Positions 857-45,745 of a stretch of 46,675 nucleotides of DNA are shown here, piece by piece (the first letter of the stretch is position 1; every line of letters begins with the position of its first letter). Under the pieces are notes generated by a model, which saw only the letters and a list, made by a program, of their open reading frames with translations, was not told the DNA's origin and did no database searches. This DNA is from a virus. The position numbers and the translations under genes were made by a program. The DNA is taken from the IMG/VR virus record IMGVR_UViG_3300035698_019051. One strand, 5' to 3'.

Positions 857-890
857 GTCGTGCGGCGCGAGAGCCGCCATAGCAAATGGC
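857..890 (-). promoter_or_regulatory. GC-rich upstream element copy
   Basis: GTGCGGCGCGAGAGCCGCCATAGCAAATGG; family described in the findings. Confidence 0.35.
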
Positions 891-1135
891 TATGTGGCCG
901 CAGCTTTGGGGCAATACATAGATAGTTGATTTGAGGGTACGTTGTGGTAGTGGTGCTCGGTCCAATAGTTTTTATAATAAAGCCATCGAACGCCGATATT
1001 ATCCAAACCACCTCCAGGAGTTGCCATCCTAAACACTATCCCAAGTACGAGAGGATCCGGTACTTCTTGAAGATCACGTTGTCTTCGGCGTAAGCGTGGG
1101 TCATATCTCACAATGTCGCCGACTCGGAATCCCAT
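890..1135 (-). CDS. hypothetical small protein
   Basis: 81-aa ORF with AGGA about 9 nt upstream of the ATG; overlaps the long version of the downstream ORF. Confidence 0.3.
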   Translation of the reverse strand: MGFRVGDIVRYDPRLRRRQRDLQEVPDPLVLGIVFRMATPGGGLDNIGVRWLYYKNYWTEHHYHNVPSNQLSMYCPKAAAT

Positions 1136-1270
1136 AAAATAATCCTAAATACGACAATGGCCTAGGTGGAGGGAGACCTAGGCCATCATCAAAAGGAGTG
1201 TCCACAGCAGGCGGAGGGAGGCCTACTGCTTACGGACACAACTCGCTCATTACGCTTATCTTTGCTTGGG

Positions 1271-1594
1271 CTACAGCCCGATCACTCCATGTAGCTCACT
1301 TATCGATACCCCGAACCACACAACAAACCCCACAGTTGTGAGGATCGCGGCAATCGACCTGCAGAGCACTCTGAACCGCATCTTACTTCTGCCAAAGTCA
1401 CACGGCACCGATTCGGGTAGAAAGAAGCAAAGCAGCTGGGCTATGGTGCCCAAGAAGCAGATGCCGATGAAGAAGCAGGTCGACCAGATGCTGAATTTGG
1501 CCAGAACACCCGATGCGTCCAGATCACCCGCTTCGATATTCGGTATCAGGTTGCTCAGTGCCGAGAAGTCGATGAAGCCTTTCGGTATCAGCAT
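1271..1594 (-). CDS. putative membrane protein
   Basis: Several hydrophobic helices; GGGGTG SD-like sequence before the internal ATG (MLIPKG); the ORF-track start is TTG. Confidence 0.4.
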   Translation of the reverse strand: MLIPKGFIDFSALSNLIPNIEAGDLDASGVLAKFSIWSTCFFIGICFLGTIAQLLCFFLPESVPCDFGRSKMRFRVLCRSIAAILTTVGFVVWFGVSISELHGVIGL

Positions 1595-1632
1595 CACCCC
1601 CCACAAGTATTATAATAGCCCACGTTTTAACC

Positions 1633-2169
1633 TTATCCATCGTCCATTCCTTTCTTGGGGCTTATCGCCCAGCCATAATCGTACGTTTTTTCATCGCCAT
1701 CGCGATGCTCTGTGTCATTAAGGACCCAACTCGCCCAGGATTTACCACCCTTGCTAGCTCCGTTCTTATCCCATACCCATGTTTCGATCTTATTGCCGCT
1801 ATCAACGACGACGGTAGGGGTCCCATTATCCATGTGGCATTCGACTGCCTTAATGGTTTTTAGTCTATTCAGCTGCCTATAGGTTCTGAAAACTTGCTTG
1901 GGTAACTGCCTTCCGGGTCCTTGGTATGACCACTCCCATTCGTCGGTCACATCGCCCTCGTCGGGGTCAAACCGTGTTACCGTTATGCACGGCCTCAAAA
2001 CGTCAAGGCTCTCCGATCCGGTGTGGTAGAATCGTGTTTTTCTGACTTCCTTTAGAGTACCGAGCTCTTTGTAGTGGGCAACTAGTTCAGGCGGCAATTG
2101 CCGCACTGCGAAGTGCCCTTCTTGTTCTTTCTTGTTCTTACTGCCGTTACTCTGGCTGTTTCGCTGCAT
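1633..2169 (-). CDS. hypothetical protein
   Basis: 178-aa ORF; GAGGAG SD upstream of the ATG; GC-rich upstream element at 2181-2245. Confidence 0.55.
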   Translation of the reverse strand: MQRNSQSNGSKNKKEQEGHFAVRQLPPELVAHYKELGTLKEVRKTRFYHTGSESLDVLRPCITVTRFDPDEGDVTDEWEWSYQGPGRQLPKQVFRTYRQLNRLKTIKAVECHMDNGTPTVVVDSGNKIETWVWDKNGASKGGKSWASWVLNDTEHRDGDEKTYDYGWAISPKKGMDDG

Positions 2170-2180
2170 TTATGCTCCTC

Positions 2181-2245
2181 GCGCGTGCGCTGCGTTCGGC
2201 GTGTTGTGCCGCGCGCCGCGCTGCCGAGCAATTTGGCAGTTCATA
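2181..2245 (-). promoter_or_regulatory. GC-rich upstream element copy
   Basis: GTGCCGCGCGCCGCGCTGCCGAGCAATTTGG. Confidence 0.4.
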
Positions 2246-43780: not shown

Positions 43781-43938
43781 CCTGAGAACCACCCTACTAT
43801 CTTGATACTGTCTTCGACTAGATAGTGCACCGCTGTGAGGAACCCTACCGCCAGCCAAGGTACAACTATCACCCAAAACAACCACTTGGGCATCGAAATT
43901 ATTACTTGCTTGTCTTTACGTTCTATGTTCAAACTCAT
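43777..43938 (-). CDS. 53-aa membrane protein (not in the ORF track)
   Basis: GGGAGG SD 6 nt before the ATG (MSLNIERKDKQVIISMPKWLFWVIVVPWLAVGF...); one clear TM helix. Confidence 0.45.
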   Translation of the reverse strand: MSLNIERKDKQVIISMPKWLFWVIVVPWLAVGFLTAVHYLVEDSIKIVGWFSG

Positions 43939-43939
43939 G

Positions 43940-44263
43940 CTAGCCTCCCTGCTGGACTCTTAGAAATAATTCGGAACTCATCACCATATACGGTGCTTGA
44001 TAATCGAAGTACTTGCCATCAATCATCAAGAAAACAGTTCCTAACTTCGGTTTAATGCCAAACTGGTCGACGAATTCCGCCTCCGTCAATCTTTCGCTGG
44101 CCGGTTCGTCTGTATTCCACCATTCTAACTGGTCTTTAATGACCGAGCGGAGTTCTTCGCCAGAAGGGCAGGCATCGGTGGCCATACACTTCTCGAATGA
44201 GACAAAGTTACGCGATGCCCGTACCGACGGTACTTCTTCAACACAAATGATGTATATGCTCAC
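43940..44263 (-). CDS. hypothetical protein
   Basis: 107-aa ORF immediately upstream of the 53-aa ORF. Confidence 0.5.
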   Translation of the reverse strand: MSIYIICVEEVPSVRASRNFVSFEKCMATDACPSGEELRSVIKDQLEWWNTDEPASERLTEAEFVDQFGIKPKLGTVFLMIDGKYFDYQAPYMVMSSELFLRVQQGG

Positions 44264-44364
44264 TTGCGACCTCCTGTTACCCTGTTATCATCGAGTATAT
44301 CATCTTACCAAGGATTATAGCCCAGGGCAAGACGAGGATAATTGTTATGATGATGAATCTTTTT

Positions 44365-44856
44365 CTAGCTGTCATTCGGGATTTCCTTGGCACCAGCCGC
44401 TTGGGCTAGCTCGTTATATTGCTCTTTGGTTGGGCCGACTGCGTGGTACACCATCCCGTGGATGCCAAGCACTTCAAGCGGGACCTCAAATCCCGCCAAG
44501 TCATGTACACGAGGCAGTATGCGCTCTGTGAACAAGTTCTCCAACGCCTCAACACGTTCATCTCGGGTAGCTGTATCAGGCATCTCACCCATCGCGGCAG
44601 ATAATGAGTCAAAGATCGGACCCTTCTCGATGCTGATGGAGAAATGAACTGAAGTCATAACTTCCAACACATCGCGGCTGACTATGATTCGTGCACCATC
44701 CTCAAAATCGAAAATATGCTTGCGCTGTGCGCCCGGACGCGTGTTAGGTTTCGCAATCATCTCCGGGCCTGCGGTGAATTCTGGGGCCATCGCGGCGACG
44801 AATCGATCGCTAAGGTCATTGTTTGATTCTGCTTTAAATTCAACTTGTGGGCTCAT
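44365..44856 (-). CDS. hypothetical protein
   Basis: 163-aa ORF, coupled. Confidence 0.55.
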   Translation of the reverse strand: MSPQVEFKAESNNDLSDRFVAAMAPEFTAGPEMIAKPNTRPGAQRKHIFDFEDGARIIVSRDVLEVMTSVHFSISIEKGPIFDSLSAAMGEMPDTATRDERVEALENLFTERILPRVHDLAGFEVPLEVLGIHGMVYHAVGPTKEQYNELAQAAGAKEIPNDS

Positions 44857-45692
44857 GAGTGTTGCTCCGCTAGTATGTTGGCAAATACTTTTACTGCTGC
44901 ACGCAGACGATCTGAATCTCTATATGTCAAATTGGCGTAGTTAGCTCGCTTAGTCTCCAGAGTCAGAGAGATCTTGTATTTCCTGCCTCGCATTGATACG
45001 GGGTAGAAGTCCTCACCGTCCGTGACCAAGAGGATTTTCCCCGCAGTTCCGTTACAGCTAAGAAGGAACCACGCTCGATTGCCGGGAACCGAAGCTGCGT
45101 CCGTGTTCACCTTGCAGTTCGGGCTAATTGATACTATGCCAAGCGATGAGATTGTTGTTGTCAGGCATTCAAATTTGACACAATCGTGCCTGGTTCGTTT
45201 GCGACAATTATCATCGTATGCGTAAGTTTCGCCTTTAGTGTAGAGGTACCCAACGCGATCTGGGAGCGGAAACGGCTCGGGCAGATCCTTGCGGTCCCAC
45301 GTCGGTATGATAGGTGCTTCTTGGGCGACTTCCTCGTTGGCTTTGGCCAGTGCCTCGTCGAAATCCTGTATTGTGTGCTTTAGCACATAGCCGCCATTTT
45401 CATTGCGGACGAAGATCTTGAAAATCCACCCACTAACAGTAGTACCAGTTTCCCAGCCTCCGATATTGTGATGTCCTTCTTCGCCCCTCAAATTGACGTG
45501 TTTCTTGTTAGCCCGAAATCTGAATACCTCGTCATTCTGCCCATCGAGCATCTTGTTGTATACAAGCCTCACCTTCCAGCCGTCAGGCCGGAGTGCCAGA
45601 AGGCGATCTCGCAATAGACCTGCGTCATATTTGTTAGCTACGTTCTTTCGTGCCATCTCTTTTCCTTCGCCTGGGATTCGGTATCGGAACAC
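44853..45692 (-). CDS. hypothetical protein
   Basis: 279-aa ORF; last gene of the minus-strand array, with a GC-rich element upstream. Confidence 0.55.
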   Translation of the reverse strand: MFRYRIPGEGKEMARKNVANKYDAGLLRDRLLALRPDGWKVRLVYNKMLDGQNDEVFRFRANKKHVNLRGEEGHHNIGGWETGTTVSGWIFKIFVRNENGGYVLKHTIQDFDEALAKANEEVAQEAPIIPTWDRKDLPEPFPLPDRVGYLYTKGETYAYDDNCRKRTRHDCVKFECLTTTISSLGIVSISPNCKVNTDAASVPGNRAWFLLSCNGTAGKILLVTDGEDFYPVSMRGRKYKISLTLETKRANYANLTYRDSDRLRAAVKVFANILAEQHS

Positions 45693-45745
45693 TGCGCGGC
45701 GTGTCGCGTCGCGGTGGTGCGGCGCGCCGCCAGCAGCAACTGCGC
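45691..45745 (-). promoter_or_regulatory. GC-rich upstream element copy in a divergent region
   Basis: GCGCGGCGTGTCGCGTCGCGGTGGTGCGGCGCGCCGCCAGCAGCAACTGCG. Confidence 0.4.

Follow-up and report, generated by a model that had tools for sequence, protein, structure and literature searches.

A fixed-spacing, GC-rich two-box motif before gene groups of an uncultivated large phage: a probable lineage-specific promoter class

How is transcription organised in huge uncultivated phages, where it is almost unstudied? The question is raised by IMG/VR virus record IMGVR_UViG_3300035698_019051, a stretch of 46,675 nucleotides that was analysed over its full length and is called the window below. Its composition is about 50% GC, 91% of it is coding, and nearly all of its genes lie on the minus strand. 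An initial annotation, made from the letters alone, had noticed a family of at least 15 GC-rich intergenic elements before gene-cluster starts and had proposed a shared, element-specific promoter that divides the array into transcription units, possibly with a hairpin-forming insulator or processing function. In the present analysis these elements resolve into copies of a two-box DNA motif of fixed spacing, which is probably a lineage-specific promoter class of an uncultivated large phage, with the geometry of sigma70-family promoters and a sigma-type reader.

The motif itself can be read directly from the window. Indeed, 14 of the 15 sites first noticed align without gaps, in gene orientation, to a single pattern of fixed geometry: nTA(A/G)TT(G/T)C(T/C), 12 variable GC-rich nucleotides, GCGC(G/A)(G/A)CAC and finally (G/A)(G/A)C. 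The initial annotation had described both boxes and the GC-rich core correctly; the strictly fixed spacing is an addition of this analysis. When the window was scanned with a weight matrix of 39 columns, these 14 sites scored 28-45 bits and the next best match 16 bits; leave-one-out scores were 10.6-39 bits, and the best score per dinucleotide shuffle averaged 9.3 bits (100 shuffles). A matrix of the boxes only, in which the composition of the spacer is ignored, gives exactly 14 matches, every one of them on the minus strand, which bears out the common orientation relative to the minus-strand genes that had been claimed. The proximal 9-mer GCGCGGCAC, with at most one mismatch, occurs 25 times against 12 expected. 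The 17-nt spacer between the boxes is 90% GC in the window, against 50% GC overall.

The placement of the copies is equally regular. Every copy is in gene orientation and 5' of a start codon, at a distance of 8-76 nt from CAC to the start codon, and 14 of the 33 gaps of at least 35 nt are occupied by the motif. The initial annotation had named a similar frequency inside genes as the finding that would point to repeats instead of promoters; what was found is that all 14 copies are intergenic, although intergenic DNA makes up just 8.9% of the window, and that they overlap an adjacent open reading frame (ORF) by 5 nt at most.

All copies in the window lie on the minus strand. Two of them stand immediately before a gene, with the ATG 8 nt past CAC and no ribosome-binding site: the copy at 852..890 (GCCATTTGCTA..GCGCCGCAC GAC), followed by an ATG at 850, and the copy at 10486..10524 (TAATTGCTC..GCGCGGCAC AAC), followed by an ATG at 10485 and with a hairpin upstream. 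Longer distances follow the copies at 2198..2236 (AATTGCTC..GCGCGGCAC AAC; start codon 36 nt past CAC, with GAGGAG before the start), 3051..3089 (TAGTTTCTT..TCGCGACAC GAC; start codon 35 nt downstream), 7203..7241 (TAGTTTCGG..GCGCGGCAC GGC; a 76-nt leader that opens with a GC-rich hairpin) and 15193..15231 (TAGTTGTCG..GCGCGGCAC GGC; ATG 19 nt downstream). The copy at 17991..18029 (GAATTTCTC..GCGCGGCAC GGC) lies directly downstream of the terminator after the vault-protein-like gene, and a weak copy at 20708..20746 (ATTTTCTCC..GCGCTCCAC ATG) lies upstream of that gene (18095-20680). A MoxR-like ATPase gene (23614-24978) is preceded by the copy at 25036..25074 (CGTTTCCCG..GCGCAGCAC GGC) and a ligase-like gene (26049-26699) by the copy at 26718..26756 (CATTTTCTG..GCGCGGCAC CGT). 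The remaining copies are found at 30736..30774 (GATTGCCCG..CCGCGCCAC GGC), at 38778..38816 (GAATTGCTC..GCGCGACAC GGC), which is the top-scoring one and whose leader opens with an 11-bp GC hairpin, and in two divergent intergenic regions at 43015..43053 (ACTTGCTGCTGG..GCGCCGCAC AGC) and 45706..45744 (AGTTGCTGCTGG..CCGCACCAC CGC). The count of at least 15 is therefore to be revised: 14 sites stand, the site at 35845 is rejected as a family member (the GCGC..CAC box is absent and the score is below 6 bits), and a degenerate extra copy at 27275..27316 (AGTTGCTGCTGG..GCTGCAC AAC), upstream of a CsrA gene and with a lower-GC spacer about 2 nt shorter, had been overlooked. An extended upstream box, TTGCTGCTGG, is unique to the three divergent-region copies (43015-43053, 45706-45744 and 27275-27316, all on the minus strand).

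Is the motif conserved beyond the window? An 87.5-kb scaffold (L041) is syntenic with the window, holds the closest homologue of its vault-protein-like protein (60% identity) and encodes proteins 60-72% identical to those of the window. The matrix, built solely from the window, finds seven matches on this scaffold, all on the gene strand and each just 5' of an independently called gene. Furthermore, with the ATPase as query, 21 loci were retrieved from metagenomes and IMG/VR, and variants of the motif are present, in gene orientation, on every contig with an ATPase identity of at least 61% and enough flank (L043/L059, L044/L045, L047 and L048), L059 coming from a 341-kb contig (IMGVR_UViG_3300005512_000001). 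With L041, the related metagenomic phage contigs that carry the motif number five. No motif was found on the 1.5-kb contig L046 (ATPase 67%), and no recurring motif of this type in relatives with an ATPase identity of 52% or less; the site upstream of the ATPase gene of L050 looks similar and scores below threshold, and the regions examined of LR756500 and LR756501, which are 24-32% GC, carry no motif.

Several copies are kept at orthologous positions: the copy of the ATPase gene (25036..25074) in L041, L043/L059, L045, L047 and L048, the copy of the ligase-like gene (26718..26756) at L041:4844, and the copy after the vault-protein-like gene in L041. A weak copy of L041 near the vault region lies upstream of a small gene (9711-9989) that precedes the vault-protein-like gene of this scaffold. 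At orthologous positions the boxes are preserved and the spacer sequence is different yet GC-rich; across genomes the 17-nt spacer is 68-90% GC, with a genome GC of 45-53%. The proximal box is GCGCGGCAC-GGC or -GAC in the window and L041, GCGC(A/G)(A/G)CAC in L045, GCGTG(A/T)CAC-GAA in L047 and ..GCG(A/G)CAC-AA in L059. Boxes that are kept while drifting by lineage are the pattern expected of a functional, selected DNA signal that would co-evolve with its reader. Exact patterns of the window type gave single chance matches only in IMG/VR, and exact patterns of the L059 type gave, among the matches listed, the 341-kb contig only, with at least four sites in its first 75 kb; a literature search for the box sequences returned only unrelated primer sequences. 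The gene content between copies varies, with eight genes versus two from the ATPase gene to the vault-protein-like gene in the comparison of the window with L041. Downstream of a motif copy in L059, a candidate Thg1-like protein (tRNA-His guanylyltransferase family; 13757-14590, plus strand) was noticed by eye.

What kind of signal has this geometry? In a gap-free alignment of 36 copies from the window and its relatives, the distance from TTG to CAC is 23 bp without exception, columns T7, G25, C29 and A30 never vary, and A4, T6 and C31 hardly do. A 17-bp spacer separates TT(G/T)C(T/C)N (columns 6-11) from CACRRC (columns 29-34) in 36/36 copies. The proximal, -10-like box CAC(G/A)(G/A)C follows TATAAT in its order of purines and pyrimidines (Y-A-Y-R-A-Y), with C for T: A is invariant at position 2, and C stands at positions 1, 3 and 6, which departs from the housekeeping consensus. 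A C-G pair occupies the place of T-G in extended -10 promoters, and GCGC is conserved at the 3' end of the spacer, the rest of which is unconserved in sequence. The initial statement that the elements do not resemble sigma70 promoters is thus right for the base identities of the -10 box and wrong for the architecture, that is, for the 17-bp spacing and the Y-A-Y-R-A-Y pattern.

Past the proximal box, columns 35-38 are unconserved, whereas 31 of 36 copies have a pyrimidine in column 39 (local background 0.33, p ~5e-11) and 33 have a purine in column 40. This pyrimidine-purine step falls 8-9 nt past CAC and 5-6 nt past the CAC(G/A)(G/A)C box. Three genes have their ATG exactly 8 nt past CAC, namely 504-850 and 9730-10485 in the window and an independently called gene at 12675 in L041; in these three, column 40 is the A of ATG and there is no room for a ribosome-binding site, and transcription would therefore start no more than 9 nt from CAC. 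Since the ATG lies 8 nt past CAC and a ribosome-binding site is absent, genes 504-850 and 9730-10485 are candidate leaderless genes. The other copies are followed by leaders of 19-76 nt with recognisable ribosome-binding sites. From this geometry we infer a layout in which column 40 is +1.

In the mechanism proposed, each copy would initiate transcription of the minus-strand gene group downstream of it. The -35-like box TT(G/T)C(T/C)N with a conserved A before it, a 17-bp spacer kept GC-rich and free in sequence except for its 3' GCGC, and the -10-like box CAC(G/A)(G/A)C would together set initiation at the purine 9 nt past CAC. Because the -10 box and the spacer are unlike any housekeeping consensus and because the box drifts between phage lineages, we infer a dedicated sigma-type specificity factor, most likely phage-encoded, that would act with the bacterial RNA polymerase. 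The GC-rich spacer and -10 region could make the promoter inactive with the host polymerase in its unmodified form. A scan with the housekeeping sigma70 consensus stays near shuffle expectation and does not mark the motif sites, and CAC(G/A)(G/A)C matches no alternative-sigma consensus known to us.

A phage-encoded sigma factor in this clade is plausible, because in more distant relatives, which do not carry the motif, sigma70-family proteins are encoded next to the gene module, within 3-5 kb of the ATPase or vault-protein-like genes. These proteins include one of L050 (4836-5717, minus strand; identical to L051:1445-2326), with E = 1e-21 against RpoD and Pfam regions 2 and 4 only, and an ECF-like ORF of L001 (LR756500; 24483-25037, plus strand). 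Homologues of the L050 protein, about 40% identical, are found on contigs of up to 372 kb, and none of them was mapped to a motif-bearing contig.

Do the copies delimit transcription units? An intrinsic terminator at 18037..18070 on the minus strand, with a 15-bp stem and a T-run, closes the preceding unit at a distance of 8 nt from the motif (18029), and at the orthologous place in L041 a terminator of unrelated sequence again stands directly before the motif. Of the functions first proposed, that of a shared element-specific promoter dividing the array into units is the best supported, by orientation, intergenic placement, orthologous conservation, the upstream terminator and the pyrimidine-purine step. 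Two other strong minus-strand terminators (29146-29178 and 23550-23575) are followed by a ribosome-binding site and an ATG and not by the motif; they probably act within units and, because of the ribosome-binding site and ATG directly after them, suggest attenuation there. A further strong intrinsic terminator lies at 4560-4599 on the plus strand, and the GC-rich motif does not follow it. The hairpin-forming insulator or processing function, which was the other part of the initial proposal, finds no support in the conserved core: RNAalifold predicts neither pairs nor covarying pairs in the 36-copy alignment, a result in favour of recognition at the DNA level and not at the RNA level. None of the 14 conserved 39-nt cores was called as a terminator; the sole call near a copy (38784-38757) is a leader hairpin just past the CAC of 38778-38816, with no convincing T-run, and hairpins are confined to a subset of the variable leaders downstream. 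A conserved hairpin or cruciform is ruled out by the same RNAalifold result, palindromes such as GCCGCGCGGC being present only in some copies.

A second motif accompanies genes of the opposite strand. In the window, L041 and L059 these genes carry no GC-rich copy and are preceded instead by an AT-rich motif, GTATTT-N(2-8)-ATATA (window 43057-43073 and 45749-45762, both plus strand; L041 ~7803-7775, minus strand; L059 5953-5968, plus strand), with the ATG directly after the motif in two cases. There may thus be two or more promoter classes, perhaps of different timing.

Several observations weigh against a sigma-read promoter. A sigma factor, an RNA polymerase or a helix-turn-helix regulator was found neither among the 72 ORFs of the window with Pfam and PHROGs (Pfam on 50 ORFs singly, then Pfam and PHROGs on all 72) nor in any motif-bearing locus, and the reader could consequently be a host factor. 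When E. coli RpoD and RpoE were compared by phmmer with all fetched loci, the sigma matches obtained were all in relatives without the motif. Promoter melting is not favoured by a -10 region and spacer that are GC-rich, and we know of no precedent for them. In a few copies (for example L059:16527) the putative ribosome-binding site would lie partly upstream of the predicted start, so that the start may vary. Finally, 19 other gaps of at least 35 nt are without the motif, two of them after strong terminators.

It can be suggested, tentatively, that the motif is read by a specificity factor of a kind not yet recorded, be it a diverged sigma factor of the phage or a protein unrelated to sigma factors, which would accept C for T in the -10 box and would work on, or even require, a spacer of about 90% GC. 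If so, the motif and its reader might form an orthogonal promoter/factor pair in an uncultivated clade of huge phages, with variants co-drifting by lineage, a proposal that is to be taken as no less speculative.

Could the motif instead be the promoter of a single-subunit phage RNA polymerase of the T7/SP6/K11 or N4 type, with the proximal box as its core and a start a few nucleotides past CAC? This appears unlikely. The proximal box looks similar to the GGTGACAC of the SP6 promoter and to the GGGCACAC of the K11 promoter, and the L047 variant reads GCGTGACAC; however, the second box lies 23 bp upstream, beyond the ~17-bp upstream footprint of T7-like promoters. Start codons 8 nt past CAC would permit a start anywhere in that 8-nt stretch, but the 4-5 nt before the predicted start are unconserved, whereas T7-like promoters are conserved through +1. 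Drift of promoters by lineage is typical of such polymerases. The conserved hairpin that promoters of the N4 virion polymerase require is lacking according to RNAalifold, and no ORF of the window is polymerase-like by Pfam or PHROGs.

An equally doubtful alternative is a site for a regulator of the phage, which might activate transcription or repress it globally in the manner of KorB/ParB. Such a site would lie beside or over a core promoter that was not recognised, and the polymerase would not recognise the site itself. Dyad symmetry, which is usual for dimeric operators, is missing by RNAalifold and by direct reading, although the site is an asymmetric two-part one whose box centres lie about two helical turns apart. 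The TTGCT of the distal box looks similar to the core of the T4 MotA box, but neither MotA, AsiA nor a helix-turn-helix protein was detected by Pfam and PHROGs among the 72 ORFs. A weakly ParB-like protein is encoded at 41988-42989, and its distant homologue P0244 carries the ParB-like domain PF02195. No separate sigma70-like -10 box lies downstream of the motif, sigma70-like matches in the window being barely above those in shuffles, and the fixed distance to the pyrimidine-purine step and to three ATGs better fits a core promoter.

It is very improbable that the motif acts at the RNA level, within a longer transcript, by directing processing, stabilising the 5' end or controlling translation. 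The strict mRNA orientation and the stable hairpins in the leaders after several copies would be compatible with this, and cleavage just 5' of an ATG would likewise give leaderless mRNAs. Against it, there is neither a consensus structure nor covariation in the 36 copies, nor a match to Rfam; with a terminator directly before the motif in two genomes, little read-through RNA would contain it; and the conserved positions are spaced as DNA contacts at -35 and -10 would be.

A selfish or structural repeat (REP, BIME, MITE) or the border of a recombination cassette, with no direct role in transcription, is scarcely credible: the copies are multiple, GC-rich and intergenic, and the genes between them are not the same in the window as in L041, as could result from secondary, repeat-mediated shuffling, but the copies have only the boxes in common and not the spacer, and so are not recent copies of each other, they are not palindromic, they have one orientation to genes and always lie upstream of a start codon, and orthologous copies are retained at 60-72% protein identity. 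The absence of sigma54 geometry, which had also been claimed, is upheld, as TGGCAC-N5-TTGC with at most two mismatches occurs 59 times against 47 expected and never at the motif sites; a sigma54 promoter is unfit because TTGC lies upstream of GGCAC and because an ATG 8 nt past CAC leaves no room for a -12 element. A lineage-specific promoter with sigma70-family geometry thus remains the probable reading.

Which organism carries this promoter class? An 8-kb piece of the window has no match among deposited phages in a nucleotide search. ORFs of three huge metagenomic phages, LR756500, LR756501 and LR756503 (462-735 kb), match the vault-protein-like gene at 48% identity, and the ATPase, which is at most 25% identical to proteins of cultured phages in a protein search, has a closer relative on the 341-kb IMG/VR contig. 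On account of these three results the window is, by comparison with known phages, a fragment of an uncultivated large phage. Fragments identical to parts of it occur in two ENA assemblies (ERZ27316076, ERZ27315667) and in the Logan assembly for run SRR7528472, and exact-protein look-ups gave matching short contigs of 1-4.4 kb, which extend the window by ~420 nt only. A scan of reference genomes for the ATPase was negative and gave no clue to the host.

Most ORFs of the window have no family assignment by Pfam or PHROGs, and neither tRNA genes nor matches to Rfam were found in it. The recognisable products, encoded on the minus strand where coordinates are given, include the vault-protein-like protein of 861 amino acids (18095-20680; MVP shoulder/SPFH, MVP shoulder E = 3e-29 and a Vault_3 repeat), which has more than 6,500 homologues across bacteria and huge phages; a second SPFH protein (29219-30250); the MoxR-like ATPase, accompanied by a DUF2201/VWA protein; an NAD-dependent DNA ligase and an ATP-ligase-like protein; an S1-domain protein; and a phage-encoded CsrA homologue (27051-27254; Pfam CsrA, E = 2.3e-24). 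Within the DUF2201/VWA gene, four tandem 18-nt repeats TGGCCCTGACCTTGT.. (14341-14409, plus-strand reading) imply a short repeated peptide.

The region beside the CsrA gene has features of its own. A divergent gene on the plus strand (27450-28352) encodes a 300-amino-acid protein without a family match, in which the protein-kinase-like motifs G.GSHG..VVKV, DVQPEN and FDLG were seen by eye; its candidacy as a sigma factor was rejected (BLASTP against the L050 sigma factor, E = 1.8). Between the two genes lie two copies of a perfect 16-bp palindrome, ATACCCG(C/T)TCGGGTAT, at 27317-27332 and 27412-27427, 95 bp apart, with the repeats TGTAACAT, TGCAACAT and TGTAACAT between them. The pair looks like candidate operators of a dimeric regulator.

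What does such a motif offer? It is a sharply defined, searchable promoter signal. Conserved in at least six related contigs, it splits an array of genes, 46 kb long and for the most part unannotated, into units. It could be used for the prediction of operons, for the recognition of members of the clade and for finding the specificity factor from complete genomes. If a dedicated sigma-type factor does read a C-rich -10 box and a GC-rich spacer, the range of promoter recognition would be wider, and the pair could serve as an orthogonal part for expression; should the reader be an alternative sigma factor of the host, the motif would be a pointer to the host. Either way the advance is incremental, a new promoter consensus and not a new kind of system, since phage-specific promoters are already known.

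How, then, does the motif compare with known systems? Unlike REP, BIME and MITE elements, it shows no pairing in its consensus, it has a single orientation and its spacers are unconserved. With the promoter-early stem-loop cassettes (PeSLs) of T4-type phages it shares the arrangement of repeated, promoter-bearing intergenic cassettes at the borders of variable modules, but it has no conserved stem-loop and an unrelated consensus, and a role in recombination would here be speculation. Promoters of the T7/SP6/K11 type are likewise a lineage-specific consensus repeated before gene groups, with a (G)ACAC/GCAC core; in contrast to them, the motif has a second box 23 bp upstream, unconserved positions -5 to -1 and a GC-rich instead of an AT-rich melting region. 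The middle promoters of T4 combine a MotA box at -30 with a sigma70 -10 box, by sigma appropriation. The motif looks similar to these in that a phage-specific TTGCT upstream box replaces the -35 box at a fixed distance from the -10 box, and differs in that its -10 box is not sigma70-like and that no MotA or AsiA is found among the 72 ORFs by Pfam or PHROGs. Sigma factors encoded by phages are known, for example SPO1 gp28 and gp33/34 and phiEco32 gp36. In comparison with sigma70-family promoters, the -10 box is CAC(G/A)(G/A)C and not TATAAT, and the spacer is GC-rich with a conserved GCGC; the features in common are a TTG-type -35 box, a 17-bp spacer, a six-base -10 box with an invariant A at position 2, a pyrimidine-purine step 5-6 nt past this box, and sites that lie before gene groups and after terminators.

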